Assembly: GCA_964430885.1 (NCBI GenBank) | Contig: CAYSHM010000010.1 | Location: 1-64,000 of the forward strand | Length of the DNA stretch: 64,000 nt | Direction of reading: 5' to 3' | Source: an uncultured archaeon | GTDB taxonomy: Archaea; Thermoplasmatota; Penumbrarchaeia; JASLWR01 | Shown: positions 28,904 through 54,969 of the stretch, piece after piece | Layout of the letters: every line of letters begins with the position of its first letter | How positions within the stretch are numbered: position 1 is the first letter of the stretch | The notes under the pieces: model-generated | What the model was told of the DNA's origin: nothing | Seen by the model: the letters and a program-made list of their open reading frames with translations, nothing else | Database searches by the model: none | Translations under genes and position numbers: made by a program

Positions 28904-31900
28904 CTAAAGCCAATCAAGATCCTCATCATCCTCGAAGGAATCGAAGCCCTTATCCCCTTCATATCTGTTTCTGCTCCTGCTGCGGGACCTCTTTTCTTTG
29001 GTATTTCGGATGCGCTTTGTCTCTTTATTACCTTTTCTTCGGGGACGTTCCTTTTGGTTCTTGGATGAACTTTTCCTCTTCCTTGCCTTTTCCTTCAGCC
29101 TTTGTCTTCTTCTTTTTGAGCGGGAATTGCCTCTTCTCACATCCGGGGTTGCCCAGTCTTCAGGGAAATTATCATCCTTATCATCCAGGTGTTCACGGGT
29201 ATCCTCCTCAGTATCATCATCTCCTTCATCATTCCACCATTCATCCTCAGTCCCCTGGTTAAAAGATGTTTCTTCATGTATCTCATCAGCTTCATCCGCA
29301 TCATCAATTTTTTTTTCCTCTGCGATGTCTTTGTCGTCTATGCTGCCTTCTTCAATACCCAAGCCAAAATCATGATCCCTTTCTTCCTCAAAATCATGGA
29401 TAGCCTTCTCCCTATCCTCATCCTTATCAAACTGTTCCTCGGAAGCACCTTCTTCATCATCCTTACTTCTAACCCTGAGCCACATTAGAATAATTATCAA
29501 GAAAAGAATTACAATCAGTATTACCAGCAGATAAACTATGCTCTTGTCCACTCCTTTATTGGTATCTTTGGAGCTGCGGCCCTCATCATCACCTGTTGTA
29601 TCGTCATCCCCTGTGCTGTCATCATCACCTGTTGTATCGTCATCACCAACAGGGTCGGTGGATTTGTTGGGTATTGTCAGATTGGCCCAGATCAAATGCT
29701 TCAGATCCTCGTTGCCATATTTGTCAAAAGTGGAAACTGCATAATAATAGGTATTTCCCGGAATCAGATCAATATCGGTCCACTTTGTGGTGTTTTCATC
29801 AAATGTCACAGTCCTTACCGGTTCAGCACCATCCAGGTATGAAGCTTCATATCTAAGGCGGTATATATTAAATCCCATAATATCGTCATCAGCTTCATAT
29901 TCCCATTCAATTACCGTTGTATTGGCCTTAGTAGTATGAAGAGATGCACTCAGATTGATTATCTTTGCCGGGGCCTTGTCGTCAATGGAGGTCCCGTTGA
30001 CCACATGGAAATAATCCATATTCGCTTTTCCATCATTATCAACAGCCACAACTGCGTAGAAATAGACCTTCCCGTCCTCAACTGTATCATCCACATATTG
30101 GATGTTGTATACCCCATTGTTCGGATGGTCCATCTCAGCTACTGGTGTCAGCCCATTCAGTGTGAGTATGTATTCACTGGAGCGGTATAACCTGTAATGA
30201 TCAACATCATTCTCCAATGCAGGGAACCAGCTGATCTCCAAGGAACCCTCATCATCAATCTTATCACTTGCCGATAATCCCCTAACAAGTACTGGATACA
30301 GGTCGATATTGAATTCATACGCAGAAGGTAGACTGACCGCACCATACTCATCCTGGGACCAAATTGTCAACCGGTAATGACCGTTTTCATCTAGATCCGC
30401 ATCAAATTCGTGCTGCATGTCCATTATCTCTATCCCTGACATGATAAGGTAGCTGATATTGCCTTCAACTAATTCCAGATCAAAAAGATATCTAACCTCA
30501 TCACCGTCAGCGTCCAGGGAGCAGTTGAAGCTGAAGCTAGGCCTTAGAGAATTGGAGTTGTTGAATTCGAATCCCTGAATTGCATCTGGTGCACCATTTC
30601 TAAGGATGAAATTTAAACTAACCATATCCGATACCGCACCTCTATCATCTTCGGCCTGAACTGATACATTGTAGCTTTCATCAAACTCAAGGGTATCATT
30701 GAATTCCAGATAAAGATCATCTGTAACTGCTTCCCATTTCCAATGGGATTCAGGATTGCTCAGCACGAAATTATATGTGACATCATCTAGGTCCTGATCA
30801 GCACTAGCGTTCCAATGAAACACTGGTGTCAAGGAATGGTTGGATTCCAATCTCAGAGCCGAAGGTGATTCCGGAACATTATTGATTATTGGACCCGGCA
30901 TGAAACCAGTGATGCCGTCAGGATCCAAGGCATTATAACCCTCTATATCCCTTGCCAAGAAGCTGAACCAGGGAGTAGTCCCGGGCGGGAAGGCAGTGAC
31001 AAATTGATATTGGCAGCCATCCGTATAATTAAAATCTATCAGGGTCTTCTCCATCTGGAAGGTCCCTTCAAACATCCCATCGAAGGAGTCCTGGGTATCC
31101 CCGTCTCCATTCAGATCCAGAATGAACCTTGGAGGACCGTCGGGCATTCTATTGAAGGGTGAAGAATATTCCATATAGAAAGTGAAATTGGTATCGCTGT
31201 CCCCCTCAAGGGGCCAATAGCAAACACCTGAACCCGGTTGGGATTCAACGAAGTGGATGGAAGGGGTGTAGGTTTCCTTCTCAACCTCATAGCTGTCAGT
31301 CAATATCATATCCAGATTAAAATATCGGTTGCTTACATTTATTGATGTATCAAGAACATAATTTTCACCATTGCCCAAAATTCTGACATGTGTCCAATCT
31401 GAGGGAACTGAAACATTGACAGTTAAAGGATGATCATAAACTTGTTCATCCATTGTTGAGTTCAAAGAAAGAGTAAAGGCATTGTCCCTGAGTTCAGTGA
31501 TGTTCACCTGGGTATTATCACGGGTTTTTATATATTTAATACCGTTCACCATTGGAGTTACCCATAGAGTTGATCGGTGATTGGCCAAATAATCCAGATG
31601 AGGAATGAATTTGGATAGAGGATTGGGATCGTAACCTCCTCCCTCTATGGCATGTATCATCTCTATCAGCCATCCGTTCATTCCCACTGCGTCATTGACA
31701 AGTCCGTTGATATGAGATAATGACTCCACTTCACCGAAGTTGCAGGGGATTAGTTTGTACATATCCTCTGGAGAGCTGGGGAGGGGTACAGGGGGGCCAG
31801 TCAGATTATGATCATCTGCCCTTCCTCCGATAAAATGCTGTCTCACCAAGTTCAGTACGTTAGAATTATAAGAGCCGTAAGGATAAGCGATAGTGGGGCA

Positions 31901-32392: not shown

Positions 32393-32499
32393 ATTACGAC
32401 CAGCCTTATTGATTTTTAACAATTGTTTATTTAATGTCTAACCAATAAATTGATTTTCAACGAGCAGATTCTCAATTTTAAAAATGTAATTCCCACTTC

Positions 32500-34458
32500 T
32501 CAGGACCACTCCACCCCTTTCTTCTTGGAGAAATCCCCATCAACATCCTCATCCTCCCAATCCATTCCGCTCTGATAGTCATCCCAGGCCTCTCGGTAGC
32601 TTATGGGTTTGCCCTTGCCGGCCCCTCGGTAACGGCCCCTTCCCTTTTTCCTTCTTCTTCTGGTCCTTACAGCCTTGATATTATCGTTTGCGACTGTGAA
32701 ATCCACTATCTCATCGTAATGCACTCTGCGGGATGAGCGTATGGAAGACGGGGCTACTTGTGCCTTCTTTTCATCAGCGCTATACGCCCTGGTTCCGTAA
32801 AGCTTCTCGGCCTCATCAAGATTGTAATCTTTTGCTATCATATTCTGAAGCCTCCTCTTATGCTCCAGGGAGAGCTCGTAGAAGTAATAACTGATAACCA
32901 GCCATGTGACATATCTCAGAGGCAGTTTCTTCTTGATCCAATCTTTTATGGAACGGGATTTCAGTTTCAAAACAAAATTGTGACATCTTTTCGCTTTGGA
33001 ATTCAGACCTTTCATCGCTGCAAACAGGTTACCCATCTCAAGCCAGGAGCCACTGTACCCTACATTTGTCTTTACCGCACTTTGATAATAAGAAATCGCT
33101 TTTTCCACCTCATTATTCTTGATGGCTATTTCAGCTTTCTTCAGCCAGATAAACTCAGCGCCCTTGATGCTCTCATCTACTTTTTCTTCCTCCTCAGCTT
33201 CCTTTTCATCCTCTTCCTTTACTCCCTTATTTTTATCACCTGACTTCTGAGAAGTGGTCTTCAGATCCAATATGTCAGTGTACTTTTGCAGAATAGCTTT
33301 TCCTTGTTTCCTGCTCAGACCCGAAGGATCGGCATTAGTACTAGAAGAAAAACTTCTCTTCATATGCTCCATAAATCCAACTCTGCGGGGATCGTCAATA
33401 TCCGTCAATGGATTATGATCAAGAGCAAGATCAATGGCCTTTAAGCTGTAATAGATCTCATCATCCTCAAGATAGCTGTAGCTGTTGACGATATGTTTCT
33501 TCATTCGATCTATATTCTTCTGAAGTTTCATATCCTGGGCTCTTTTTATTGAATACAGCAATAATCCCGCGATCATCATCAGGGTAGCAGTACCAATTAT
33601 CAGTATTGTTATCTCCCCTGACACACTAGCTTCCTCCCCAGCAAGGAAATAGAATATGAAGTAAATGAAATTTATCATTAGACCGAGTATCCACAGGTTG
33701 AAAAAACCGAAGGTCTTCGATATCAGGTCCATCTTCTGGGATTGGAGTATGGAAGCTGCAAAGAAAATTGGAAATCCTATGATTGCTACACCTGAGAGCT
33801 GAACGAACCAGGCAATACCCAGATCTCCCATATCCAAAGAAAGCCTTACTAGAACTGTCAGCATGAGTGAGGAACCTATAATATGCAGTGCAATGATAGG
33901 CCAATATATTCTGCGAATATACCTCCTATTGAAATATGCCAATAGCAAAGATATCGATAGTATGACCGCTCCTATTATCACCTTGCCGGACAATATCCAC
34001 GCAGAGTGAATGGTGTAAACCAAACCCAAAGGGCCCAATATAATAAATAAATAATAGGAAACGAACTTAGTGCAGTTGGGATGAAGAGCAATATGACGGA
34101 TCTTGATGAATTTGAAAATTGAAACGCAGAGGAAAATGAACAGAATTCCGAGGGACATCCATTTCAGAACTGGATCTGGTTCTCCTTCGATACGGAGAAT
34201 ATCTTTCAGAGATGCCATTGTGTCCGAGAAAATTAAAAACATACTCGCAAACAGCGCAATGATCGTAAAAGCATATACAAAGTTCAGATTGATAAGATAA
34301 TCATCCACCAATGGAATTCTGCAATCCCTGCACAATATTTCCCGACTCGTAATTCCCTCATTTCCGCAAGCAAAGCATCTGCGTCCTCTTTTGGAGGTGC
34401 ATTTTCCCTTTTTTCTTTGCTTATTCTGAGTGGAATCTTTATTTTTCTTCCCGCTCAT
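32500..34458 (-). CDS. Polytopic membrane protein with N-terminal zinc ribbon, C-terminal TPR-like helices and basic/acidic tail
   Basis: CFAC...CRDC at the N-terminus, ~9 hydrophobic segments, TPR-like WLKKAEIAI...AISYYQSAVKTN...SWLEMGNLF. Confidence 0.75.
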   Translation of the reverse strand: MSGKKNKDSTQNKQRKKGKCTSKRGRRCFACGNEGITSREILCRDCRIPLVDDYLINLNFVYAFTIIALFASMFLIFSDTMASLKDILRIEGEPDPVLKWMSLGILFIFLCVSIFKFIKIRHIALHPNCTKFVSYYLFIILGPLGLVYTIHSAWILSGKVIIGAVILSISLLLAYFNRRYIRRIYWPIIALHIIGSSLMLTVLVRLSLDMGDLGIAWFVQLSGVAIIGFPIFFAASILQSQKMDLISKTFGFFNLWILGLMINFIYFIFYFLAGEEASVSGEITILIIGTATLMMIAGLLLYSIKRAQDMKLQKNIDRMKKHIVNSYSYLEDDEIYYSLKAIDLALDHNPLTDIDDPRRVGFMEHMKRSFSSSTNADPSGLSRKQGKAILQKYTDILDLKTTSQKSGDKNKGVKEEDEKEAEEEEKVDESIKGAEFIWLKKAEIAIKNNEVEKAISYYQSAVKTNVGYSGSWLEMGNLFAAMKGLNSKAKRCHNFVLKLKSRSIKDWIKKKLPLRYVTWLVISYYFYELSLEHKRRLQNMIAKDYNLDEAEKLYGTRAYSADEKKAQVAPSSIRSSRRVHYDEIVDFTVANDNIKAVRTRRRRKKGRGRYRGAGKGKPISYREAWDDYQSGMDWEDEDVDGDFSKKKGVEWS

Positions 34459-34585
34459 GCATCCAACAACCTATTGTATATTTTCGTGAGTATACATTTC
34501 CAATATTCTTATGGAATTCGAATTTAATTGCATACTCTCACTCTAACCACTATTCCAAATCAAATGAAGTATTCATTTGTAATCA

Positions 34586-36130
34586 TTATTTCAATTTCAC
34601 AGTCCTTCTTCCCCAGTGAATTTTGATCCCTAAACCAGTTATATATTTGAAATAAAGGAAGGCTGCTAACATACTGTAGCCCATATCATATAAGATCTTG
34701 ATAGGCAGATAACGATATGTTCTTCTCCCTTCCTTGTATTGACTTAAAATAAGTATCCTGACAATAAAATATACCGTGAATATCATGATGGTTCTCACTG
34801 AAATAAAAACAAATAGATATTGATTGACGTACAATGCAGGTAAAAGAATTATGATAAGGGTCATTATACCCAAGAGAAAAAGCAGGTAAACAAAATTAGC
34901 CACCCAGGTGAAATACATATAGATCCCCCATGGATTCTTTTTTAGAAAATCCTTGTTCTCCCTCCATGATTGATACTGCCCATAGATCCATCTTTTCCTC
35001 TGGTTATACCAAGCTTTCCATTTTGTCGGGGCCTCGGTTCTTGAAACAGCAGTAAGGGCAGTTCGTGTTTGATAACCGCTGCCCAGAACTGTCTGTGTTA
35101 GATCTACATCTTCGCAGCATGTCCTATCCTGACATGAATATCTCTTGGCCAGTTCAGATCTCATTCCGAATACAGGACCGGGTTCTATCAGTACGTTCCC
35201 CATATCACTCTGAGGTATTCTGATCAGATGCTGGGTAAGTATATATTCCATTTGCTGTAATTTAACCAGATAACCCTTGTCAGTATTCCTTATTAGAACA
35301 AATCCTCCGACAATACCCGCGTGAGGATGTTTCTTGAACTCGTTGACAATGTTGGTGACGCAGTTCTCATCGAAATGTGAATCTCCGTCGGTGCTGACAA
35401 TTATCTCACCAGTAGCCTCCTTCAGCCCGAAATTAATGGCACTGGCTTTGCCACCGTTGGGTTTTTTAATCACCTTTACTTCACGGGTGTCGCTTTTACC
35501 TGCGAGGATCTTGCTTATAGCATAGGTGTTGTCTTGAGAGCCGTCATCAACGATAATAATAACCATATTACCAGGGTAATCCTGAAGATAGGCATTCTCA
35601 ATTGTCTGGGCTACATTCTGCTCCTCATTAAAACACGGTACTATCAATGATACATCCGGATTGTAATCCTGTGGAATCGGCTTCTGTCTCACATGGAGTG
35701 GAAAAGCAGCTTCTCTGTCAACACCTATAGGTGATTTATCCGTATAGTTACGGGTAAGTTTGAAGATGTTTCTTTTTTTCCGTGTTTTGGACAAACCTTC
35801 CGGATCGGTTATGTATTTCCCATTATCAACTCCACCGGATTGCCCCACCTTTCTCTCATATCGTTTGGTCAAACTCGACCATATTAGGAAGAATATAACT
35901 GGAAACATGCTAGCTACAAGGAAAAGATAATAAAAACCATCGATGAGAACCAGCATTAGTAGAGAGAAGGTTCTTTTATTGAACAATCCCAGTATCTGCT
36001 CATCTGCCTCCTCCTCGGACATATCCTCACTGGGATCCCTTATATAGTACCCAAAAGAATTGGGGATCAGAAACATAGGAAGTATTATGATCAAACTTAT
36101 TATAAATGCGGTAATTCTGATGCTGGCCAT
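34586..36130 (-). CDS. Processive family-2 glycosyltransferase (PgaC/IcaA/cellulose-synthase superfamily)
   Basis: VSLIVPCFNEE, IIVDDGSQD, NGGKASAIN, TDGDS (DxD), LQQMEY, CEDVDLT (catalytic base), TEAP, QRKRW, then C-terminal TMs. Start overlaps the upstream stop (TAATG). Confidence 0.92.
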   Translation of the reverse strand: MASIRITAFIISLIIILPMFLIPNSFGYYIRDPSEDMSEEEADEQILGLFNKRTFSLLMLVLIDGFYYLFLVASMFPVIFFLIWSSLTKRYERKVGQSGGVDNGKYITDPEGLSKTRKKRNIFKLTRNYTDKSPIGVDREAAFPLHVRQKPIPQDYNPDVSLIVPCFNEEQNVAQTIENAYLQDYPGNMVIIIVDDGSQDNTYAISKILAGKSDTREVKVIKKPNGGKASAINFGLKEATGEIIVSTDGDSHFDENCVTNIVNEFKKHPHAGIVGGFVLIRNTDKGYLVKLQQMEYILTQHLIRIPQSDMGNVLIEPGPVFGMRSELAKRYSCQDRTCCEDVDLTQTVLGSGYQTRTALTAVSRTEAPTKWKAWYNQRKRWIYGQYQSWRENKDFLKKNPWGIYMYFTWVANFVYLLFLLGIMTLIIILLPALYVNQYLFVFISVRTIMIFTVYFIVRILILSQYKEGRRTYRYLPIKILYDMGYSMLAAFLYFKYITGLGIKIHWGRRTVKLK

Positions 36131-39100
36131 TATTTTTCCCCTCCTTCATTCCGTTTCTCTGATCCATTAACACTGCTCAAAAGGAGGGTTTCCAATTCAT
36201 ATATCTCATTGAGTACAAGGCTCATATTGTTTGTCCACCCAATAGGGTCATCAGCCACCCTTTGATAAGAAGCTCTGCTTTTATTTTTTATAAAAAACAA
36301 ACTAATAGCCAACAGACACGTTATCAATAGGATCGTTATTATTAAAGTATAAAGATAAAAATCACCAGGTGCAAAACCGAATATCAGATTATCTTCATTC
36401 CCCTGACCATCACCCCCCGAAGTGACCGCTGAGGAAGAGTTGATGTCTTTTTTATCGATAATTTTTTCATCCTCATCCTTTGTTTCAAAACTATTATTGA
36501 TAAGGAATCCCTTCTTCTCAGTTATTATAATCCGAGACCAGGTTCTATCATATTTTCCGAAATCGTCATAAACGCTCAAGGTTATATTGAAAACCCCAGG
36601 GCAACGGTAAGTATGAAAACAATCTCTGGTATAGGAAAAGGTACCATCACCAAAGGTCCAAAAATATCCAGTAATAACTCCATCAGGATCAAAAGATTCC
36701 TTGCTACTGAATTTCACAGGTTGGCCTTCATAGCATTCTTCAATTGAACATTTATCCAACCATATTTTTGCGCTAGGTGCCAAATTCTCCACCATGAATT
36801 CATCTGATTTTATACCTTCATTCCCTCCTGAATCCACTGCAAAAACCCTGAATCTAAAACGTTCGCTCCTTTTTATGTTATTAAAATCATATTGACATTT
36901 ATCTCCCGCAGTAACGGTTAGCACTTCCCACCCCTGCATATTCTGGGAGGTATATTGAAGAATATATATGTCCACTACTCCGCCACCGGCATCTTCGGTA
37001 GAATTCCATTTTATAAAATACCCCATTAATTCCCGATTATCCTCGGATAATCTTACCTCTGCTACGAGACTGTTTACCTTATAAGGACGGATGCGGTCAA
37101 TAAGTACGGGAATTTCAGCTACGGAATAATATCCTTTGATACCTGTATTTCCATATGGAATAATTGTCAAATAAATCTCGGTGTATTTTTCGGTAATACC
37201 TTGGAAGGTGAAAGTTGTAATATTTCCTTCAAGAGTATAATTGAGAATATTTTCTTTGTAGGGTGCATTTCCTATCAGGATCCGGGTCCAATTCAAACCG
37301 GATGGAGAGTTTCCGATCATATCCCAATCCCACTTGATGGATTGGGGACCTGTCGCTAAAATGGTAACAGATATCAATTTGCGGTCCGGAACGGGAGATG
37401 AGCATCTTATTCGATATGAATCATGGTGGAAGGTATGCGTGCCCAATGAACTATTCCTGCCCAGGTTATCTTGTGCACAGATACCGAATATATGAGATCC
37501 GTTTTCAACTCTTGGAACCTGTATCTCCAGAAAACCTCTGTCAATGTCTACAGAAGAAACCTTATAGCATTCAGCGGAACCTTCGTCTACGTTCCACCAG
37601 TATCTTCCAATATTGAACAGGGGATCATTGTTATAGATATCTATCAATTCTATCCTGAAAACAGGGCAGGTTTGGTTGCTCCAGCCCTCTAATAGGTCTT
37701 CCGGCAATGGGGTTGGAATTTCAGGTAGACATGGGTAGAACTGGACCGCATCTTCCTGATAAGGATCCAAAGACTGGTTCCCTGGCAGGGTCAGCCGTGC
37801 ATAAAATCCATATTCATCTTCAGATTGGACCACCTTGAGGAGGATGCGGTTAATTCCCTGTTTAAATGTGACTGGAACGACGAACTCATCTGCCCAAGCA
37901 CAATTTGTTTTTCTTTCCTCCAATAGGATAAGTTCACCGTTCAGCCAAACTTCTATCCCGTCATCCGCACCTATCCTAAGTTCATACTCGCCCTTTTCCC
38001 TGGTAAGTATGTTTGAAAATGCGTAGATGCTGTTATATTTCAAGTTCAGATCTTCCTCAGCAAGGTCGATATAATCACAGGGACTAGTATACTGATACCA
38101 TTCCAAACCATTCTCCACATCCCCGGGTGATGGTGACTCATCCCAGAAATCCCCAGACCCCGAATCATACAAATTACCTGTATCCAATTCAATATATTGA
38201 TTCTCCAAAGCATGCGGGTAATCAAGATTTGAAAAAGGACCTAGGAAAAGCCATTCCTTTTGTGTTCTGGGAACTTCAAGAAATTTAAAATAATCAATTG
38301 ATAATACAGTGGATGGGTCCGGAGAATCCTCAAGGATGAGTTTTAAACCAGTTATATTTAAACACTCTTCAGTATTATTGGCAATCCTGATCCATCCAGG
38401 ATGTTCTTCAAGTCTAATACCAATTTTATGAAATTCGTTATCCGGCGGTACTATGAAGCGGACCTTTTCCTGATCATTTCCAGGATATGTGATGCCTGCT
38501 TTGTTAGTCCATTCGAATAATATCGTTACCGGCTGTGCTCCTGAGTTCTTCAGCCTAGCTTCTATTGAAGTATTTACTGAAGGGTCCAATTGAACTAGAG
38601 GAGATCTAAGATAGGTCCCAGCAGTAAGATCATGGATATCCCACCGGCCATCCATAGGATAATCATTTCTACGGGGAAAAATCTCCCACCCATCCTTCAA
38701 TGTAGGTCTGTCGAAATTCCAGCAATTTTTCATAACCGGTACATCCATGACCTTGAGAGGTGAAAGCAATTTCTCCGAGAAAACGCTGTCTCTTATAGCC
38801 CAGCCATAATTGGGATAGTTTTTAAAGTACCAGTATTTGAAAAGGCAAACCCCCTTGGCCCCCTCCTGTCTAGCAATGGTGATCTGGTCCTTCAACAAAT
38901 CGATTCCCTGCTCTTCTGTGTTTACAGACCCATGAGCAGAATTTTCTGGTGTATAAACATAGGTTCCAACGTAAATGTTCTTACCATTGCAGTGATCCAC
39001 ATGATTGTCTGCACAGCTCCTGAAACTCGATCTACTGGTTGTGTAGGTCATCGGCGTAAGATAGTCCACCAGATTCTCCTCGGTCCATCTTCTGGCATCC

Positions 39101-40008: not shown

Positions 40009-40080
40009 ATTAATCCTTTTATTTGGTATTTTTTCGGTTGATTCATTCTATTTTTATAGCTAACCACTTATTATTTCGGA

Positions 40081-43000: not shown

Positions 43001-43842
43001 GCCCACTGGGAACCTCCCCCATCAATTGAGTACCAGAAATCGGGTTTATATTCATGAACCGCTTCACTGAACATTCTGAGCATCTCCGTAAACTGGTCAC
43101 GCTCCCAAACCTGTTTACTAGCATATCCGGATTGAGCCCAGGCCTGCATCGTATAATCGTCATATGAATCAGGAATGTAAAGATGATCCATTCTCAATCC
43201 GTCTATGGGATAAGTACACATCTCCATATACATATCTACAAGATATTCTCTACAATCAGGTCTATTAGTATTGAACCCCCGGCCTGAGGGAACGCCGTTC
43301 TGATCAACCACCCTGAATTCAGGGTGTTCTATAAAGGCCCAGCGATTCGTATGGGGATGTATCCAAACATGAACCTCTATACCCCGCTTGTGCGCCTCTA
43401 TACACAGGTTCATCAGTGGATCAAAACCAGGGGCTATATCGACATGTAGGGGGTAGAATTCCGATTGATAATACACTCCTCTGCCCTCTCCATTTATAAT
43501 TGGACTGACAACATTGAAATTATAATCCTCGCAGAAGTTCAGGAGCTCAAGGATATTACTGATATTGATTATACTGTAGCCAATGGTCCACATTCCCCTG
43601 TACTCTACAAGCTCACCGCTCTCACCAACCTCCAATCTACTTTCGAGTTCAGAATCCGAAGGAACGACCAACAATCGATTCTCCTGTGATATCCCAGTTT
43701 CCTCCGATATTGGGTTATACGTTTTGTCCAACGGGATAGGCGTAAATAGGAATAATATTGCAATGTACATAATGAACAAACGAAGTCCAGTTTTCCTGAT
43801 CTTCTTATCCCTTTTCATTCTATCACTTGGTTTACTTTGCAT
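40081..43842 (-). CDS. GHL10 with PA14-like, FN3 and PKD domains, membrane-anchored; paralog 2
   Basis: EYRGMW, FDPL...EAHKRGIEVHVW, YPIDGLRMDH, IDYLTPMIY, VGADDGVVLWVNG, WNYGDG, C-terminal TM. Confidence 0.85.
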   Translation of the reverse strand: MQSKPSDRMKRDKKIRKTGLRLFIMYIAILFLFTPIPLDKTYNPISEETGISQENRLLVVPSDSELESRLEVGESGELVEYRGMWTIGYSIINISNILELLNFCEDYNFNVVSPIINGEGRGVYYQSEFYPLHVDIAPGFDPLMNLCIEAHKRGIEVHVWIHPHTNRWAFIEHPEFRVVDQNGVPSGRGFNTNRPDCREYLVDMYMEMCTYPIDGLRMDHLYIPDSYDDYTMQAWAQSGYASKQVWERDQFTEMLRMFSEAVHEYKPDFWYSIDGGGSQWAREGIIDYLTPMIYTPNRNSFRNSVRSYVRAQYCDQIIAGPYVYTAGNTAHGQVETDEEGIALIVDLIDIAQTEGADGVCLFRYEFLRDNPEYAWALNSVFPNRTWAPVKKLTVPVYRTEWEFNQTTYRECWNIFPRRYDHPMNDQWEIHNAYEGTTLVSPLLDMDPHSAPTLELRAKNDGNNPLILSFTWKNDVGWEYPKQNENKVEFQLPPDGQFHTYGHRLDEVAGWGIKGNGDPNTARITRFNISVIDNADPSATLTLDYFKFQSDPDCQKDWLKLGPFQNTDYFSAMEMDRASIVGRPFSEFDLPPDNNNTYFTCIPPEPGQIESGLEWAEFTTTRDYIDLYDLGLGNEAESTYFYTNVISEMDMEYHLKVGADDGVVLWVNGEEVIRDDKVVQQAEVDNLTIPISLSEGINSLMLKLVQKTGEYGFYFRLTDENNGSVDDLLSYYTVLPPLPEPEPDDLVDEWITRDNNSMRFHFVISEDPDPFFSVGKYWWKIDNENPKLLAVHESNILKGYMEHELTNISNGYHTYSVRAQDGIGRNSSWGNHTYKVDRTLPKFSIPVPDRELIGVTELSQSQQKVTWNWDIVTPCCSGISHVQIWLGSSPGNSNIHKINISGESLSFTYDILTDYYNSIYLSLIPTSNAGLEGLKTSSQVPVIIDNSKPDKVSGLRYLPDIAPDGHSLISYIISWDELYSSGTKEQLDRFVVEYRSQNIMNWKQLGTTEGDKTTFSFGNPSRSERYRFRVFAVDVSGNQGPASEDILVENLAPTSVISSPMIDINETFVGMPVLFYAGNSYDPDGYVYDYYWNYGDGTFSYDEKTFHTFRKAGIFTVSLSVFDEFGAYNVTTYLINITSPPQQLANETNSNANNSAQSGDDSDVGDLPETDSGPDNSENETADSGGLITSFLSKYFPFLLLGIVCLFFLLLNFALYLRRKSSSEKEMETRSQNIDLSEMDVRSTEKLLINEFEI

Positions 43843-43922
43843 AGGGCTGGATTCTTTCCATATCGACTGTTCGAGCAGTTCTAACGATATCTCTTCCAGT
43901 AAATTGATACTAACCGGGTCTG

Positions 43923-46900
43923 CTAATCATCAATTCGATCATATTCAACATCATCATTACCAATTTCCTTAGGGGATTTCCCGAATTGTGAGCGTTTAAA
44001 AAGCAATGAAACTGAGAACAACAGCAGAAACACAGCTATACATGCAATAAGTATGTAAAGTACTGGCGATTCGGTAATCGGTTCTTCTTTTTCCTTCTCA
44101 ACATCTGTATTATTACCGTCTGTAGCATCTGAATTATTCAATTCTGTACCGTCATCATCAACATCTGTTGCGTTCAAAACCTCCCTTTCGGGTGATATTG
44201 TAATATTTATGAAATTTTTTGTGATATTGTAGGCACCGAAATCATCATAGACTGTAAGCATTATCTCGTATAATCCTTCCTCTCGGTAAGTATGAAATAC
44301 CGATCCTTCATAGGAAAAGGTTCCATCTCCGAAGGACCAAAAATGTTCATGAACAATCCCATCAGGATCATAGGAGATATTTGCCGTGAACAGCAGCGGA
44401 TATCCCGAATATGTTCCGTTCTGCTGATTTGCAGAGTATTGGATAATTGCAGTAGGCTCAAGGTTCGGGATGGTATAATCCTCTGAAACCGGGCCGTAAT
44501 TTCCCGCGGTATCAACTGCATAGATACGGAATCGATAGCGTTCGCTGCGCTGTATCTTATCGAATTGATAGCTGGTTTTGGAAACTTCTACCTCGGCCAG
44601 GATTTTCCATTCTACAAGGTTTTGACTTGTATATTCCAGCACATACCGATCTAGATCCCCAAAGGCACCAGGATCCTCAACTGGGTCCCAGGATATTGAA
44701 TATGATTCCATGCTCCTTCCATTTTGAGACACATTTGGAGTGATTTCAAGTGAACCTACTCTCTCGGGTCTCAATCTATCTATCACAACAGGATTGCTGG
44801 TCTGGGGATCTCCTGAAATATTGGTATAGCTCACTGGAACCACAGTGAAATAAATGCTCTTGTGAGAGGTTGAGATTCCATCGAATGTATATTCTTCCAC
44901 AACTCCTTCCAGTGAATCAGTATAGATATTGGATGATCCAGTAGTGTCGCCGATAAAGATCTCAGTACGTGTTATTCTGGAAGGACAGTCTTTTATCAAG
45001 GACCAGAACCAGGTAACAGGCTGTTCGGAATTCTGAAGATCGGATATGCCAATGAGGTCCTTATCAGACACTGGTTTTGAGTAAGCGGGAATGTCATTAT
45101 CCACCTTGAAGATATGTTCTCCCCATGTGCTGTTCCGTCCCAATGCGTCCTGAGCTAGAATGTAGAAAGTATGCTCTCCGCTATCCACCTGGTTCACCTC
45201 AATTGATAAAATTTCATCATTGATGATCTGGTCATTCACATATACTTCAACAGGTGAATCAGAATCTATTTTCCACCAGTAACTTGTCACATCGAAATGC
45301 GGGTCCGGGTCGGAGGTCTCTATATGGTCCATAGTAAATGAAAGTGCTGTAAGGTTAAGCCAACCGTCGGATTGATCATCTGGAACAGGAGCAGGAATGT
45401 CCGGAAGTACAGGATAGAACTTAAGTTCATCACTAACCGAATTGTTCATGTAATCGGTCATTCGAAGATAAAAACCGAAAGCGCTGGTATTCTGACTCAA
45501 CTTAAGCACCAACTGGTTCAACCCTTCTCTAACATTGATGGAAACAATGTAATTATCTACCTGAGCTTTTAGGACCGACCCATTATCATGAGATACCATC
45601 TCCCCATTGAACCACATCATATGGGCATCATCCCCACCTAGCCTTATTTGATAATCACCCTCTTGACCGGAGAGAATATGAGAAAAGACGTACATTGTAT
45701 TGAAATCATCATTCCAACCCTTATCAATAAAACTAACATAATCAGTTGTGGTAGAGTACTTTTTCCATTCTTTTCCGCTTGTGATCTGACCTTCTTCCGG
45801 CATTATATCTATCGGACCGCCAAACGACCAGTTACCCTCAGTCGAACTATCATGAGGAATATGAAGATTTCCGACGGCAACCTGGTAATCAACGTTTTGG
45901 AAAGGACCCAATAGGAGCCACTCTTTTTGGCATCGGGGAACATTTAGAAACCTAAGATAATCAAGGTGAATTTGAGGGTTCGTCTCATTTGCATCAACCA
46001 CCTTTAAAAATGTTCGTGATATCCTGAGATTTCTATCCAGATTCTCATCGAAAATCACCCATGATGAACGGTTATCGAGTCTGGACCCCATGGTGTGGTA
46101 TTCACCATCAGGCGGAATCGTAAAATAGATCGGATCTTCATCATCCTTGGGATAATAGATATTTTTCTCGTTGGACCATGAAAATTCAAGTTTTAAAGGC
46201 CGACTTCCCGAATTTTTCACCCTAAATTCAATCGATGAGTGATTCACAGGGTCCAAGTTCAACAGAGGGGAGACCAGTTCGGTTCCGGATACCGCATTTG
46301 TAACCTTCCATTCTCCATTCAGAGGATAATCATATCTTCTGGGAAACAACTCCCACCCTTCTCTGAGGGAAGGGTCGTTGAATTCCCATCCACTCTTATT
46401 GACTGGAACTGTTTGTTCCTTGAGGGGCGTCCAAACCTTTTGAGAATAGGGGCCATCCTTGAGATGCCATCCATAGCTCGGATGTTCCTCCAGATATTTG
46501 TAGCTAAACATACTGATGCCGTCAGCATTATTATTCCGTGCTATTTCTATCTGATCCAAAAGAAGATTGATCCCTTCTTCCTCGGTCTCTACACTTCCGT
46601 GGGCTGAATTTCCAGGAACATAAACATATGGTCCAGCATTTAGGAGATTTCCATGCTTATTCTGAACGTAATCTCTAAGGGAAGACTCGAATGAACTCCT
46701 ACTGGTGGTATATCCCATTATCTGTAAATAATCCACCCATCCCTCCTCTGTCCAAAACCGGTTATCCTGATAAACACCGTGATACCAGCTGGAATAACTC
46801 TGCCAAACATCCGCACCAAGCCAAAGATAGGGTTTATATTCGTTGAGCGCTGCCCTGACCATTTTAACAAGTTCACTCACTTGATCCCTCTGCCATTGAG

Positions 46901-47624
46901 CTCTATCAGTGTAACCTGAATCTGCAAAGGCCTGATTTGAATAGGGATCGTATGAATAGCTTCCGCTTCCGTACCTTATAGTATCCATCTTAATTCCATC
47001 AACAGGATAGGAGGCGATTTCCATAACCATATTTACCAGATGTTCCCTGACATCCGGTCTTGACGGCGTTATCCAAACTGTACTGGGCGATCCTCCGCTC
47101 GATACCTGGGGCCAATCCTGATGCTGAATTCTGGCTAAAACATTGTAGCACATATGGACCCATGGATGCACCTCGATCCCACGTTTATGAGCTTCTATGC
47201 AGAGATCTTCCAAAGGATTGAAATTCCAGGCTACATCAATATGTTTTGGATATATATATGAATAATAGAAAACACCGTCACTATCTCCATTAATGAGAGG
47301 GCTTAATACGTTTATATTGTGAGAATCCGCAAATTCTACCAAGGCCAAAACCTCACTGTGGTTGACTATCTTGTATCCATCGCACCACATGCCTCGGTAT
47401 TCAATGTCGTTATCATCCCTGGATATGTAAATACTACCTTTATCGGTATGAATGATATTATCTTCTATGACTGTTTCTTTTTCCGATATCGAAATTTCTT
47501 CTTCACAAACCGAATATTCATTGATGATATCGTTATAGAAAATTGAGAGCATCATCCCCAGGATAAGTATGAATAATGCAAAGAAGCAGGCAGTTTTCTG
47601 TTTGATTTTCCCAGGTACCTTCAA
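43923..47624 (-). CDS. GHL10 with PA14-like, FN3 and PKD domains, membrane-anchored; paralog 3
   Basis: EYRGMW, EAHKRGIEVHPW, YPVDGIKMDTIRY, YQDNRFW, LGGDDAHMMWFNG, WSFGDG, C-terminal TM. TTG start after an AGGTG SD. Confidence 0.85.
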   Translation of the reverse strand: MKVPGKIKQKTACFFALFILILGMMLSIFYNDIINEYSVCEEEISISEKETVIEDNIIHTDKGSIYISRDDNDIEYRGMWCDGYKIVNHSEVLALVEFADSHNINVLSPLINGDSDGVFYYSYIYPKHIDVAWNFNPLEDLCIEAHKRGIEVHPWVHMCYNVLARIQHQDWPQVSSGGSPSTVWITPSRPDVREHLVNMVMEIASYPVDGIKMDTIRYGSGSYSYDPYSNQAFADSGYTDRAQWQRDQVSELVKMVRAALNEYKPYLWLGADVWQSYSSWYHGVYQDNRFWTEEGWVDYLQIMGYTTSRSSFESSLRDYVQNKHGNLLNAGPYVYVPGNSAHGSVETEEEGINLLLDQIEIARNNNADGISMFSYKYLEEHPSYGWHLKDGPYSQKVWTPLKEQTVPVNKSGWEFNDPSLREGWELFPRRYDYPLNGEWKVTNAVSGTELVSPLLNLDPVNHSSIEFRVKNSGSRPLKLEFSWSNEKNIYYPKDDEDPIYFTIPPDGEYHTMGSRLDNRSSWVIFDENLDRNLRISRTFLKVVDANETNPQIHLDYLRFLNVPRCQKEWLLLGPFQNVDYQVAVGNLHIPHDSSTEGNWSFGGPIDIMPEEGQITSGKEWKKYSTTTDYVSFIDKGWNDDFNTMYVFSHILSGQEGDYQIRLGGDDAHMMWFNGEMVSHDNGSVLKAQVDNYIVSINVREGLNQLVLKLSQNTSAFGFYLRMTDYMNNSVSDELKFYPVLPDIPAPVPDDQSDGWLNLTALSFTMDHIETSDPDPHFDVTSYWWKIDSDSPVEVYVNDQIINDEILSIEVNQVDSGEHTFYILAQDALGRNSTWGEHIFKVDNDIPAYSKPVSDKDLIGISDLQNSEQPVTWFWSLIKDCPSRITRTEIFIGDTTGSSNIYTDSLEGVVEEYTFDGISTSHKSIYFTVVPVSYTNISGDPQTSNPVVIDRLRPERVGSLEITPNVSQNGRSMESYSISWDPVEDPGAFGDLDRYVLEYTSQNLVEWKILAEVEVSKTSYQFDKIQRSERYRFRIYAVDTAGNYGPVSEDYTIPNLEPTAIIQYSANQQNGTYSGYPLLFTANISYDPDGIVHEHFWSFGDGTFSYEGSVFHTYREEGLYEIMLTVYDDFGAYNITKNFINITISPEREVLNATDVDDDGTELNNSDATDGNNTDVEKEKEEPITESPVLYILIACIAVFLLLFSVSLLFKRSQFGKSPKEIGNDDVEYDRIDD

Positions 47625-47660
47625 TTAAACACCTTTATGATTTTCTTTGTTTCAATTGTA

Positions 47661-50639
47661 TTACAATTCTTGTGAACCGTCCTCATCATCCTTACCTTTG
47701 GCTTTCGATTTATCAGAAGGAGAACCGTTCTTGGATTTTACGGTTTTATTTACAGAAGGACTGCTAGATCCCACATCCATGTCTTCCTCCACACGCATCC
47801 CTTTAACGCTGATCGACAGATCATATATTACTATCCCGATAACGAGCAGAACAAAGACTATCCACAATAATTTTGACTTGTTCTTGCTTAGAATGCTTCT
47901 TGAAGAATAGGTCTTCCGATCGTCAAGACCGTCCAGATCTTCATCCTCAGTTTCATTCACTACTGTCTTGTTTTCAGAGGGTTCAAATATCAATATAGGC
48001 ACCTGAATGGATTCCTCATTTCCAGCAAGATCTCTGATCCTCAGTACTGCAAAATAAATTCCGGGATACTGATAGATATAATAAAATGAACTGTTCTTGA
48101 TAATAACACCGTCTCCCATCTCGCATTCCAGATTTGACAAGCCGTAATTATCGGTACAGTTGGTAAAATTGAAAAAAAGAGAATTGTTCACACGTGAAAT
48201 GAAGTAGGGCAGCAAAGAACGGTTGTCCTCCTCGCTCGGTGTGCGATATGTAAAATTCCTTAGTCGTGTAATGTTGAAATCATCCTCAAAGGAGACCAAC
48301 TCACCCAAAGAATAACAAATCTGGGTACGATTGCCGTCTGAATAGGATATTCTATATTCATGATAATTGGTAAGATTTTTATCGTCCAATATGGAAAGAT
48401 TCATAACGGCAATAGGTAATATTACATCAGTCACCTCCAAATGAAAAGTGGTGGTGTTCCAGTTTTCCATTGCATCCAGTATCTGCAGGGTAATGTAGTA
48501 AGTTCCTGGTTGATCATACCTGTAGTTCAGGATTGAACGGTTGCTACCGAAAATGATACTACCATCTCCCAAGGACCAGTTGTAGAAGGTTATATTTTCA
48601 TTATCATAGGAAGCTGTAGCATTGAGGAAAGCATACCCCCCAAGCTGTACTTTTTCCGGATAATCCACAATAACCACCGGAGGGGTCCCGTCCTTCACGA
48701 AAACAGCACCAGTATCCACATTATAATTTCCCTCTGAATCATATACTGCGAGATCTACAAAGTAGGTCCCCATCTTATTATATATGTGGTTCACCCACGA
48801 GACTGTGGTAATCTCAAATGTCCCATCACCGAAATTCCATTCATATCTTGAAATCAACCCGTTATCTGTAGATCCAGAAGCATCCAGGGTTAAGATATAT
48901 CCCTTACGAATATGATTCTCAGAAGGAATATCTGCTCTAGGGGGAGTCAGATCGTGAACCCAAACCCTCTTTGTGGTATAGGTGGTAAAACCTGTTTTGT
49001 TGATTATTGTCAAGCGGACAGTATAGTTTCCCGGGTCTTCATAGATGTGAGTGACAGCGGATCCAGCGTGATAATCCACATTTCCATCTCCGAAATCCCA
49101 GGTATAGGTTATGATCCCGTCACGGTCATAAGTTTCACTGGCATCGAACTGTATCGGGCTGTCCTCATTTACTTCGTCCATAGAATCTATCACAGGGCAG
49201 GGTACAACCTTTACTTGAGTATGATGCCTATCGATACATCCGTCATTGTCCTCAGCAGTAAGGGTCACCTGATATATTCCCTGTTTCTCATATGCATGTT
49301 CTGCATAAAGCTTGTTGGATTCGTTACCATCACCGAAATCCCAACGAATATTCTTAATAGTACCATCTACATCATAGGCAATTGCATCATTGAACCTGAT
49401 GGGTTTCCCAGGTTCGGCAAAAACACTTTTGCCAATATTGACGGATGGAGGAAGGTTGGTAGCGTTGCTCGCAATATATTTCCTCAGATGGGTATTTATC
49501 TTTCCGTCATGATGTCCCATGTACCAGAAACAGAGACCGTATAAGTTGAACTTCTTCACGAGATATAATTTATAAAGAAAACTCTGATTATCTGAATAAT
49601 GGGTTTCTCTGTATCGGTTGGATCCGTAATCAGCATTATAGGTATAGAAAGGATAACGCCCAGTTGCATTCCATTGTCTTTTAACACCGTAAACTTCCCG
49701 GACGTTCTCTGCCTGTTCATAGTTATAGATCTGGGCACCGGAGAGAGTATTCCCAACCTCATCTACCGGCCAGTCATATCCGAAAGTAGGTATTCCAAGG
49801 ATTACCTTTTCCCGGGGGATCTTGGTAACTGCATATTCCATTATGCTGTGGACCCAATCGTATGAGGCCACAGCTCCTGCAGAATGATGGGTGGACCAAT
49901 GCTCATTGTAGGCCATAATCTTCACTTGATCGGCCACAACCCCAATTGGCTCGTATATATAAGCGTCACATTGAAAACCTGTTCGGTCGTCAGTCCATCT
50001 CGGATACAGAGAAACCGATATTGTCTTGTTGATCTTCTTCATCTCTACACTGAGGTTCTCAATAAATGATACATACCTGTATCTATCAGAGTATCTCACA
50101 GACTCGTAGTTGATCTCTATTCCGTCATAACCGGTGTTGTTTACTATTTTACATATCCGTTCGATATGTTTGGCCCGAAGATCAAGATCATTGAAGAAAA
50201 GGGTATAGGTGGCATTATTACCACAATATATGATAGGGATCACGGTATAGTTCAGTTCCCTGTAAGTGTTCAGCCTGTTCCATATAAAACCCGGTTCATC
50301 AACGGTCTGTACCACCTTGGCAAAGCTGTCAAGGGTGTACCAGTAAGGATAGATATGATTGAAAACATCCCTGTTCTGGGTCATATTAAGGTGGCATTCC
50401 TCATCCCAATAAACTGTCCAGGAGCCATAATGCGCTGAATTATTTACACTTCCGTTCCTAGTAGAAATCTCAAGGAACTCCTTGAAGGAAGAATAATCAA
50501 AGGCATCATTTTCCAGACCTTCATCGACCGAAGGTTCTTCACCCAAATAGTTGGTAATAAGGGAACTCAGGGGTATAAAACCCAAAATCGCAATAATAAT
50601 TAATGAACTGAGAGTGATTATATATTCTTTGAATTTCAT
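47661..50639 (-). CDS. GH18 chitinase-like hydrolase with ~4-5 PKD repeats and C-terminal TM
   Basis: HIYPYWY, GYDGIEINYE (DxxExNxE variant), KIMAYNEH, AGAVAS..WV, KVILGIPTFGYDW, GLCFW. Repeated WDFGDG/WNFGDG/WSLGDG. Confidence 0.88.
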   Translation of the reverse strand: MKFKEYIITLSSLIIIAILGFIPLSSLITNYLGEEPSVDEGLENDAFDYSSFKEFLEISTRNGSVNNSAHYGSWTVYWDEECHLNMTQNRDVFNHIYPYWYTLDSFAKVVQTVDEPGFIWNRLNTYRELNYTVIPIIYCGNNATYTLFFNDLDLRAKHIERICKIVNNTGYDGIEINYESVRYSDRYRYVSFIENLSVEMKKINKTISVSLYPRWTDDRTGFQCDAYIYEPIGVVADQVKIMAYNEHWSTHHSAGAVASYDWVHSIMEYAVTKIPREKVILGIPTFGYDWPVDEVGNTLSGAQIYNYEQAENVREVYGVKRQWNATGRYPFYTYNADYGSNRYRETHYSDNQSFLYKLYLVKKFNLYGLCFWYMGHHDGKINTHLRKYIASNATNLPPSVNIGKSVFAEPGKPIRFNDAIAYDVDGTIKNIRWDFGDGNESNKLYAEHAYEKQGIYQVTLTAEDNDGCIDRHHTQVKVVPCPVIDSMDEVNEDSPIQFDASETYDRDGIITYTWDFGDGNVDYHAGSAVTHIYEDPGNYTVRLTIINKTGFTTYTTKRVWVHDLTPPRADIPSENHIRKGYILTLDASGSTDNGLISRYEWNFGDGTFEITTVSWVNHIYNKMGTYFVDLAVYDSEGNYNVDTGAVFVKDGTPPVVIVDYPEKVQLGGYAFLNATASYDNENITFYNWSLGDGSIIFGSNRSILNYRYDQPGTYYITLQILDAMENWNTTTFHLEVTDVILPIAVMNLSILDDKNLTNYHEYRISYSDGNRTQICYSLGELVSFEDDFNITRLRNFTYRTPSEEDNRSLLPYFISRVNNSLFFNFTNCTDNYGLSNLECEMGDGVIIKNSSFYYIYQYPGIYFAVLRIRDLAGNEESIQVPILIFEPSENKTVVNETEDEDLDGLDDRKTYSSRSILSKNKSKLLWIVFVLLVIGIVIYDLSISVKGMRVEEDMDVGSSSPSVNKTVKSKNGSPSDKSKAKGKDDEDGSQEL

Positions 50640-54949: not shown

Positions 54950-54969
54950 CTTTGGATTGGGTGACGGTT

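Follow-up and report, generated by a model that had tools for sequence, protein, structure and literature searches.

Gene content and conserved order of the cluster

We analysed a stretch of 64,000 nucleotides (the 64-kb window; positions 1 to 64,000 of contig CAYSHM010000010.1, assembly GCA_964430885.1) from an uncultured archaeon of the phylum Thermoplasmatota, and in particular a cluster of seven consecutive minus-strand open reading frames (ORFs), all in one orientation, at positions 28904 to 50639, which may direct the synthesis of a cell-surface glycan. In the order of transcription, the cluster encodes a GH18-like protein (47661 to 50639, 992 amino acids), three GHL10-like proteins (GHL10-3, 43923 to 47624, 1233 amino acids; GHL10-2, 40081 to 43842, 1253 amino acids; GHL10-1, 36130 to 40008, 1292 amino acids), a GT2 synthase (34586 to 36130, 514 amino acids), a membrane protein of 652 amino acids that we call the partner (32500 to 34458) and a CE4 deacetylase (28904 to 32422, 1172 amino acids). 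The gaps between them, calculated from the ORF coordinates and given in the same order, were 36, 80, 72, -1, 127 and 77 bp. The negative value reflects a single A that the TAA stop codon of GHL10-1 and the ATG of the GT2 gene have in common (TAATG, within ...AAATAATGGCC...), and a GGAGG sits a few bases 5' of this junction. An initial annotation had listed seven co-oriented minus-strand genes with gaps of at most ~130 bp and a TAATG overlap; we recovered the same ORFs with exactly the same span, no gap exceeded 127 bp, and the overlap was confirmed in the sequence. The TTG starts of CE4 and GHL10-3 are longest-ORF calls. The GC content of the cluster (0.39 to 0.44) was the same as that of the window (~42%), and thus the cluster did not look like a recent import.

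A hydropathy scan placed an N-terminal hydrophobic segment and one C-terminal transmembrane helix in each of the five enzyme-like proteins (GH18, the three GHL10 proteins and CE4). The C-terminal helix stood 45 to 210 residues before the C terminus, and in all five proteins 2 to 5 Lys or Arg residues lay within the 15 residues after it. These basic residues suggest that the bulk of each protein, with its catalytic-type and PKD or fn3 domains, is outside and C-terminally tethered; a cleavable signal peptide and a signal anchor are indistinguishable by hydropathy for the N-terminal segments. All five had been assigned a signal peptide, a stalk and a C-terminal helix, and the hydrophobic segment and the helix were found throughout, while the stalk of CE4 amounted to a PKD match at an E value of 0.012 only, below the Pfam cut-off. 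Pfam and NCBIfam detected no PilZ- or GGDEF-type domain in the cluster proteins, and Pfam no LysM, SH3 or CBM binding module. Pfam searches of the window and the related loci described below found no sugar transporter and no N-acetylglucosamine (GlcNAc) catabolic gene within the cluster or its conserved neighbourhood, and there was no UDP-glucose dehydrogenase gene in the 64-kb window by Pfam.

The order of the genes was conserved in related organisms. A scan of one genome per species gave 197 pattern matches, from which 14 loci were confirmed. Thirteen of them were archaeal, 12 being labelled Thermoplasmatota, Thermoplasmata or Thermoplasmatales and one "uncultured archaeon"; the fourteenth held a Lewinella GT2 with 24% identity and none of the other cluster genes. 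One archaeal locus (L006) covered 2.6 kb and had no usable flank, and 12 were therefore informative. GT2 identity to the window ranged from 39 to 59% across the archaeal loci, with locus L001 the nearest (59%). Co-location in relatives had been named in the initial annotation as a test of its interpretation. We found a GHL10 gene directly upstream of the GT2 gene in 12 of 12 informative loci (with two copies in three loci and a fusion to GH18 in one), a GH18 gene upstream of the GHL10 gene or genes in all 10 loci that reached that far (L005 and L010 end at a contig edge), and a gene for a membrane protein of 480 to 900 amino acids downstream of the GT2 gene, again in 12 of 12. According to longest-ORF calls, the GHL10 stop and the GT2 start overlapped by 4 nt in 7 of the 12 loci, and the reading frames of the GT2 and the membrane protein overlapped in 11. 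Each locus had its own flanking genes (among them M48 peptidase, urocanase, Na/H exchanger and pirin), and the retention of a four-gene block amid unrelated flanks argues for a self-contained, vertically conserved unit. Outside the nearest relative, the GH18 and GHL10 proteins were only 27 to 33% identical to those of the window, and since the order was kept at such low identity, chance co-location is implausible. We regard this synteny as the decisive new evidence for a biosynthetic over a catabolic reading of the cluster.

The GT2 synthase and its candidate membrane partner

The GT2 protein matched PF00535 (2.4e-30), PF13641, PF13632 and Chitin_synth_2, and its layout comprised two N-terminal transmembrane helices, a cytoplasmic GT-A domain, C-terminal transmembrane helices and a C-terminal W-G-R-R. 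Helices were predicted from hydropathy at residues 4-22, 69-87, 413-431 and 439-457, and further ones were present in the AlphaFold2 model. The initial annotation had described a full processive D, D, D, QxxRW set followed by C-terminal helices, which agrees with these predictions and with the alignment of relatives: D196, D248/D250, E340-D341 and Q377-R378-x-R380-W381 were invariant in 21 of 21 aligned sequences, and the D, DxD, ED and QRxRW motifs aligned with the same motifs of PgaC and NodC. The loop between the first two helices was acidic (1 Lys or Arg, 8 Asp or Glu) and was followed by a basic segment (16 Lys or Arg) running into the GT domain, a distribution that points to a cytoplasmic catalytic domain. 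The C-terminal W-G-x-R aligned with the W...R of PgaC, NodC and other relatives; it resembles the WGTR-type motif of hyaluronan synthases (HAS) and chitin synthases.

The closest relatives of the GT2 formed a compact group made up of Thermoplasmatota and of unnamed metagenome proteins (39 to 62% identity), which was separated by a step in E value from 1.6e-75 to 1.8e-43 from Nitrososphaeria, Asgard archaea and others (~30 to 36% identity). The family profile matched the solved Xenopus HAS1 across the QxxRW and the membrane region, while its other sequence matches in the PDB covered the N-terminal GT-A half only. In the AlphaFold2 model, built from a 21-row alignment, the mean predicted local distance difference test score (pLDDT) was 75. 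The 13 best Foldseek matches of this model in the PDB were hyaluronan synthases (E values of 3e-15 to 8e-12 over 411 to 568 aligned columns), followed by BcsA and then by chitin synthases (~1e-9); the template modelling scores were modest (0.41 to 0.52), and identity in the structural alignments was 14 to 18%. The motifs, helices and fold matches together predict a synthase of the membrane-embedded processive class, to which BcsA, HAS, chitin synthase, NodC and PgaC belong. By sequence, the protein falls in the PgaC/NodC/HAS-like radiation of membrane synthases, outside every named family, and its score against the cellulose synthase family of NCBIfam (37 bits) was far behind those against PgaC/IcaA and NodC. 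A lead to methanochondroitin (a GC content of ~42%, PKD-rich proteins, Methanosarcina-like) was dropped, as the GT2 falls among Thermoplasmatota.

The partner consists of a CxxC...CxxC zinc ribbon, eight transmembrane helices, a TPR-like domain and a low-complexity tail, and it matched no Pfam or NCBIfam family. Pfam confirmed all of the domains named in the initial annotation except the TPR of this protein, which was below the Pfam cut-offs (14 bits, E value of 0.04 to 0.08). The orthologues in L004 and L013 did pass the cut-off of TPR_11 (32.7 and 35.9 bits versus 26.8). An alignment of 13 members showed four invariant Cys residues, eight hydrophobic helices and a helical C-terminal domain, and the invariant CxxC...CxxC and common C-terminal blocks were found across the loci; the truncated copy in L011 was 73% identical to that in L003. 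Lys and Arg residues numbered 15, 1, 4, 1 and 7 in the even loops (28 in total) and 2, 0, 0 and 0 in the odd loops (2 in total), a bias that puts the zinc ribbon as well as the C-terminal TPR domain on the cytoplasmic side. By these positive-inside counts, the partner differs from the periplasmic TPR scaffolds of PgaA, BcsC and PelB and would thus not be an export scaffold. Its C-terminal part (32500-32800) is a K/R-rich low-complexity cytoplasmic tail, which is longer still in the L001 and P0122 orthologues.

A profile search of 1.84 billion representatives with the partner gave ~21 full-length members and a few fragments among the 150 best matches, the remainder being TPR proteins that aligned to profile positions ~350-470 only. 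A word-indexed homologue search returned 2 proteins only and was probably swamped by low-complexity words, and an Atlas search with the transmembrane part gave no usable match. The AlphaFold2 model (pLDDT 68) was helical-repeat-like; a Foldseek comparison with the PDB had no match at an E value of 0.001 or below, and its best rows, starting at 0.05, were mostly TPR proteins. Judged by sequence, the partner thus represents a small, new family of polytopic proteins with predicted cytoplasmic zinc-ribbon and TPR modules, always encoded beside the GT2. Its gene position suggests that it serves as a co-synthase, a scaffold or a regulator.

Predicted tethered ectoproteins, fusion proteins and flanking sugar genes

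The GH18 protein has an N-terminal hydrophobic segment, a TIM barrel at about residues 70 to 390 (PF00704, 2.2e-17, 64.2 bits versus a cut-off of 29.6), four PKD domains and a C-terminal transmembrane helix at 927-945. Its nearest solved relatives were 4wiw, YaaH, YdhD and cortical-lytic enzyme (E values of 2e-24 to 1e-19), not classical chitinases. These solved relatives carry D-F-E at the catalytic strand, and 4wiw has M-T-Y-D; the window protein has D-G-I-E-I-N-Y-E and M-A-Y-N, so that the Glu is kept and both Asp residues are replaced by Asn (of the family motifs DxxDxDxE and MxYD). The database homologue search reached 10 other proteins, and three distant YaaH-like matches retained I-D-Y-E.

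All three GHL10 proteins matched PF02638 above the cut-off of 27.9 bits (GHL10-1, 91.3 bits, 8e-26; GHL10-2, 40.4 bits, 2.4e-10; GHL10-3, 81.5 bits, 7.9e-23) and had similar layouts, with a TIM barrel, a conserved middle region, fn3 or PKD domains (fn3 at 5.7e-6 in GHL10-3 and PKD_4 at 3e-13 in GHL10-2) and a C-terminal transmembrane helix (1191-1209 in GHL10-3). Their pairwise identity of 40 to 44% indicates that they are old paralogues, and where other loci have a single or GT2-proximal copy, GHL10-3 was the copy that matched it best. The sole solved relative of GHL10-1 was Cwp19 of Clostridioides difficile (5oq2, 8.8e-14). Excerpts of PMC6016235 describe Cwp19 as a peptidoglycan lytic transglycosylase, and those of PMC5765458 place its fold nearest to the C-terminal PNAG-hydrolase domain of PgaB (PNAG, poly-N-acetylglucosamine) and propose Asp196 and Arg132 as key residues. 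Escherichia coli DigH, which according to the available part of PMC12288456 degrades denuded, peptide-free glycan strands, is a full GHL10 member (PF02638, 6e-136) and has the D-D pair. In the archaeal GHL10 proteins, the first Asp of the Asp195-Asp196 pair of Cwp19 was invariant, and many other barrel residues were more than 90% conserved, as they were in the GH18 family. The middle region of GHL10-1 resembled PA14 as a lead only (5.5e-4 in Pfam, below the cut-off; Atlas clusters at 0.77 to 0.84 versus a level of 0.9).

The CE4 protein starts with an N-terminal hydrophobic segment, followed by the CE4 domain at residues 79-196 (PF01522, 8e-22, 77.9 bits versus a cut-off of 23.1), a long region without an assigned domain, a transmembrane helix at 962-980 and a charged cytoplasmic tail of ~190 residues. 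In NCBIfam and among solved relatives, it resembled peptidoglycan and chitin deacetylases. Its metal motifs are intact, as the initial annotation had stated: TFDD ("sltfddg") and HxxxH (H-T-L-T-H, "chtlthpd") aligned with those of the best solved relative, the deacetylase 6dq3. The C-terminal part (28904-29500) is a low-complexity tail that is acidic first and then K/R/S-rich. Large same-strand genes stood in the CE4 slot in other lineages, including a beta-helix/NosD-like gene in L003 (12969-16214) and genes for Ig-rich and LanC/GH127-like proteins in L013 (13067-19869), which suggests that the position of CE4 is a variable accessory slot.

Three minus-strand genes for sugar nucleotide enzymes flank the cluster; the initial annotation listed the seven cluster genes correctly and passed over these. 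Upstream lies a GFO/IDH/MocA oxidoreductase (51087 to 52241), identified with Pfam, whose best curated family is the archaeal UDP-GlcNAc 3-dehydrogenase (NF040723, 270 bits, below the cut-off of 450); its real start is probably near 52037, and a 447-bp AT-rich gap separates it from the GH18 gene. A hexapeptide-repeat sugar N-acetyltransferase-like gene (28108 to 28713; Pfam Hexapep, NeuD/PglB/VioB family at 95 bits, below the cut-off) lies 190 bp downstream of CE4, and a DegT/DnrJ/EryC1-type sugar aminotransferase follows (26970 to 28040; Pfam, 1.6e-125). Both downstream genes had counterparts in the same positions of L001, each with 68% identity, and like CE4 recurred in none of the other 10 loci with sequence past the membrane protein gene. 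The three genes together resemble a pathway to a 2,3-diacetamido sugar nucleotide. They are possibly associated with the cluster, outside its conserved core, and might provide substrate for the synthase of this lineage or act in N-glycosylation.

Several proteins combined domains that are encoded separately in the window. In L002, GH18 and GHL10 were found in one ORF of 2112 amino acids (3645-9983), which may be a genuine fusion or may stem from an error of assembly or frame. A tblastn search of plasmids with the GT2 reached a Bacillus mycoides protein of 1116 amino acids annotated "glycosyltransferase" (WP_215576262.1; NZ_CP036118.1, L020 2745-6095), which in a single chain has GH18 (residues 110-399), CE4 (479-582) and a GT2 synthase (755-1045), matching the window proteins at 2e-18, 3e-7 and 2e-34, respectively. 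Judging from these domains, this looks like a one-protein polymer machine that holds three of the four enzyme types of the window. It differs in being bacterial, in lacking GHL10, in having no zinc-ribbon/TPR partner annotated nearby and in the canonical I-D-F-E and M-Y-D of its GH18 domain. On plasmid pHLAC01 of Halorubrum lacusprofundi (L015 6421-9131), a gene for a CE4-like DUF2334 protein overlapped by 4 nt a GT2 gene whose product was 33% identical to that of the window; this may be a separate haloarchaeal deacetylase-synthase pair. Two distant GT2 relatives (P0041 and P0083) had PF01522 in the same protein. Such fusions and pairs tie the GH18 and CE4 activities to the synthase product and not to foreign substrates.

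Possible function of the cluster

The PNAG systems (pgaABCD and icaADBC) have, like the window, a GT2 with D, DxD, ED and QxxRW motifs and flanking transmembrane helices, PgaC/IcaA being the best named family for the window protein. They also have a CE4 deacetylase outside the membrane and a TIM-barrel glycosidase-like partner, and excerpts of PMC5765458 make the GHL10 protein Cwp19 structurally nearest to the C-terminal domain of PgaB. In E. coli, pgaD directly follows pgaC, and a membrane-partner gene likewise follows the GT2 gene in the window. However, the window lacks a small protein of the PgaD/IcaD kind, as well as IcaC and a porin, its partner is instead a 652-amino-acid zinc-ribbon/TPR protein with eight transmembrane helices, its GT2 reached 144 bits against the 422 of the PgaC/IcaA cut-off, and CE4 is missing in most relatives. 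To our knowledge, GH18 occurs in no described PNAG system. CE4-GT2 fusion proteins such as Streptomyces MatB also count among the PNAG systems. Class I HAS, chitin synthases and NodC include the best structural matches of the window GT2 (Chlorella virus HAS at 3e-15, and Xenopus HAS1) and are similar in size, in the layout of the transmembrane helices and in the C-terminal W-G-x-R, but the window protein is only 14 to 18% identical to its matches in the structural alignments, and it falls with its archaeal relatives in a clade of their own on a long stem. The NodC system differs further, since the window has no NodA-like gene and a CE4 with a predicted extracellular location.

The nearest solved or characterised relatives of the GH18 and GHL10 proteins (YaaH, YdhD, cortical-lytic enzyme, Cwp19 and DigH) are peptidoglycan enzymes, and the available parts of PMC12288456 and PMC6016235 have DigH and Cwp19 acting on peptide-free or cortex-type beta-1,4 N-acetylhexosamine (HexNAc) glycans. 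The window proteins differ from them in that key Asp residues are replaced, in their length of 900 to 1300 amino acids, in their membrane tether and in their link to a synthase. Archaea of this phylum are not known to make murein. In the Pel system, a membrane protein with a cytoplasmic TPR-like domain stands beside a polysaccharide synthase, as in the window; this protein is PelE, a member of the complex PelD/E/F/G of the inner membrane, and its TPR-like domain is a prediction. The Atlas and Foldseek searches with the window partner gave no sequence or fold match to Pel, and the Pel glycosyltransferase is a soluble GT4, not a membrane GT2. The synthase-dependent systems in general (pga, ica, bcs, pel and alg) are operons with a synthase, an accessory membrane protein and modifying or cleaving enzymes, and the window agrees with them, with its order kept in 12 loci. 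It differs from them in having neither a cyclic di-GMP receptor (PilZ, PgaD interface or PelD) nor a porin with periplasmic TPRs, and an outer-membrane porin is not expected in a single-membrane cell. The lack of a PilZ or PgaD-type partner had been remarked on before, and indeed no PilZ or GGDEF domain was found, and the gene downstream of the GT2 belongs to another family.

We know of no synthase-dependent HexNAc polymer system that has been characterised in archaea. The initial annotation likewise knew of no archaeal system with this layout, and our literature search, whose coverage took in few subscription journals, found no description of the cluster. Predicted PgaC/BcsA-like GT2s of archaea are mentioned in the accessible part of PMC10086821, and the words "archaea" and "GH18" do not occur in a survey of bacterial operons (PMC7112194).

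On balance, we lean towards reading the cluster as a Thermoplasmatota-specific, synthase-dependent system for a HexNAc-containing glycan of the cell surface, with tethered remodelling enzymes and a lineage-specific CE4. The best reading of the loci is that the GH18-like protein, the GHL10-like protein or proteins, the GT2 and the partner form the core and that CE4 is a lineage-specific modifier. In such a system, the GT2 would use cytoplasmic UDP-HexNAc, most likely UDP-GlcNAc, polymerise a beta-linked chain and thread it outward through its own transmembrane channel, in the manner of the synthases of hyaluronan, chitin, cellulose and PNAG, while the zinc-ribbon/TPR protein would act as its membrane partner from the cytoplasmic side. 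The GH18-like protein and the one to three GHL10-like proteins, held by their C-terminal helices, would have their TIM barrels raised above the membrane on PKD/Ig-type stalks, where the barrels could bind the growing chain and remodel it by cutting, by transglycosylation or in some other way. In the lineage of the window, the tethered CE4 would partly de-N-acetylate it. We infer the donor sugar, the linkage, the chain length, the GH-like activity and the partner role. A HexNAc polymer is suggested by the families of all four enzyme types, whose characterised relatives act on GlcNAc-type glycans, and a beta-1,4 linkage is favoured over the beta-1,6 linkage of PNAG, given that beta-1,4 HexNAc glycans are the substrates of GH18 and of those GHL10 enzymes that have been characterised. 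The "chitin/PNAG-like" polymer of the initial annotation therefore keeps its HexNAc part, with a beta-1,4 backbone favoured given that the nearest GH18, GHL10 and CE4 relatives act on peptidoglycan-type glycans, and loses PNAG as a specific assignment.

Several results weigh against this reading, and some of them lend weight to its rivals. All organisms in which the cluster occurs are uncultured. The topologies of all cluster proteins come from hydropathy and charge counts, with no dedicated predictor. BLAST from the partner of the window detected 6 of the 12 downstream genes, and the other 6 were assigned by position, length and alignment. An orthologue of CE4 was present in L001 only, that is, in 1 of the 11 loci with sequence past the membrane protein gene, and absent from the other 10. 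Deacetylation thus appears to be a lineage-specific add-on, and the "complete machine to extrude, de-N-acetylate and trim" of the initial annotation was too inclusive in this respect. The GT2 scored below the cut-offs of its two best NCBIfam families, PgaC_IcaA (TIGR03937, 144.4 bits versus 422.3) and NodC (TIGR04242, 105.4 bits versus 550). We built a quick maximum-likelihood tree from 19 cluster-type enzymes, E. coli and Enterobacter PgaC, two NodC, E. coli BcsA and one haloarchaeal GT2, without IcaA, HAS, chitin synthase or non-processive GT2 sequences. In it, the 19 enzymes formed their own clade (100 in the Shimodaira-Hasegawa-like approximate likelihood ratio test, on a stem of 2.0 changes per column), which stood weakly beside PgaC (93 in the same test, with long-branch warnings). 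A tree forcing this clade together with NodC was not rejected (P value of 0.62 in the approximately unbiased test) and was 4.7 log-likelihood units better. The tree gives no reliable sister group for the cluster-type enzymes. NodC shares the motifs and topology of the GT2 yet makes oligomers only, and chain length is thus not fixed by the motifs. It is accordingly conceivable, in our view with a very small chance of being right, that the GT2 makes short oligosaccharides like NodC, or glycosylates a lipid or protein, and that the cluster builds a surface glycoconjugate or a signal; the window and L001 pair a CE4 with the GT2, as NodB is paired with NodC. However, the CE4 is predicted to be extracellular here and NodB is cytoplasmic, no NodA-type acyltransferase was found with Pfam in the cluster and its flanks, the best fold matches of the GT2 are polymer synthases, and large tethered endo-type TIM-barrel proteins would be hard to explain for an oligomer.

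The catalytic residues of the barrels raise further doubts. In GH18, all 11 locus orthologues and all 8 close database homologues carried Asn in place of the Asp of both DxE and MxYD (I-N-Y-E and M-A/T-Y-N); in GHL10, all 17 archaeal sequences had T, H or A instead of the second Asp of the pair, and the equivalent of Arg132 of Cwp19 was not conserved. By sequence, the residue thought to stabilise the oxazolinium intermediate is replaced clade-wide in both families, so that these domains may not hydrolyse anything, and binding, transglycosylation, an altered substrate or another catalytic solution may apply; the "trim" of the initial annotation loses its footing here, with the second Asp of the Cwp19/DigH pair gone as well. 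The domains might thus be lectin-like anchors that bind the GT2 product or the glycan of a neighbour, with nothing trimming the polymer, and the several paralogues on long stalks and the candidate PA14-type carbohydrate-binding regions, a lead only, would suit such a role. We consider this unlikely, since the catalytic Glu of GH18 was kept in all sequences and the other barrel residues are conserved in both families as those of an active site would be, and in GH18 chitinases a change of Asp to Asn leaves some activity and adds transglycosylation. It is very unlikely that the tethered proteins (GH18, GHL10 and CE4) serve to degrade exogenous chitin or the glycan strands of bacterial peptidoglycan, be it for nutrition or as weapons, beside an unrelated GT2, even though peptidoglycan is the target of the nearest characterised relatives of each enzyme type and the accessible part of PMC12356512 describes how archaea use peptidoglycan hydrolases against bacteria. 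The GT2 and the partner were in every informative locus linked to the GH genes, with frames mostly overlapping; the proteins are predicted to be C-terminally anchored in the membrane, not released; and the cluster lacks, by Pfam, peptidoglycan- or chitin-binding modules (LysM, SH3 and CBM) and any binding module of the sort that secreted archaeal peptidoglycan hydrolases typically have (PMC12356512). These features, together with the lack of uptake or catabolic genes nearby, weaken any catabolic or antibacterial role. The preference for biosynthesis in the initial annotation is upheld by the synteny in 12 loci, by the lack of a transporter or GlcNAc catabolic gene and by the Bacillus chain in which GH18, CE4 and GT2 are fused.

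A bolder form of the surface-glycan reading is that the polymer makes up a chitin/chitosan-like wall or sacculus-like layer, with a 2,3-diacetamido sugar maybe in the lineage of the window, that the GH18 and GHL10 proteins are mainly transglycosylases and that the partner couples synthesis to a cytoplasmic signal. We consider this quite unlikely. If true, it would be a new type of archaeal cell-wall polymer, in which the GH18- and GHL10-derived proteins, held at a set distance from the membrane, cross-link the layer and remodel it, akin to fungal wall enzymes, and the flanking dehydrogenase, aminotransferase and acetyltransferase would supply the diacetamido sugar. The usual picture of archaeal envelopes is one of S-layers, to which pseudomurein, methanochondroitin and a few other special polymers are added. 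The four-gene module, conserved and self-contained within a phylum that is widespread and uncultured, offers a concrete, testable candidate for a new surface polymer, and the partner offers a new family of synthase partners to study. The natural GH18 and GHL10 variants may tell how hydrolases become binders or transglycosylases, and the Bacillus fusion protein links the module to uncharacterised bacterial systems.

The remainder of the window contained several other genes. A three-subunit molybdopterin dehydrogenase (MoCo-binding, 2Fe-2S and FAD) is encoded at 100-3847 on the minus strand beside a putative cyclase gene, and a protein of 2175 amino acids with lamin-tail, MAM and three PKD domains at 9436-15963, also on the minus strand, with a tRNA-Ala just downstream (9351-9426, plus strand). 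At 20379-22851 on the plus strand, a pair of neighbouring half-size MgtE-like genes precedes a pair of PhoU/TrkA-C genes, so that the arrangement in pairs is repeated. MMPL/RND (HAE3-like) transporters are encoded at 23531-26713 on the minus strand, adjoining the DegT gene, and at 54781-58043 on the plus strand, after a TetR-family regulator. Divergent from the oxidoreductase gene, a soluble protein of 575 amino acids consisting nearly entirely of TPR repeats is encoded at 52281-54008 on the plus strand, and a second TPR protein, with a CBS domain, is found at 59844-61043.

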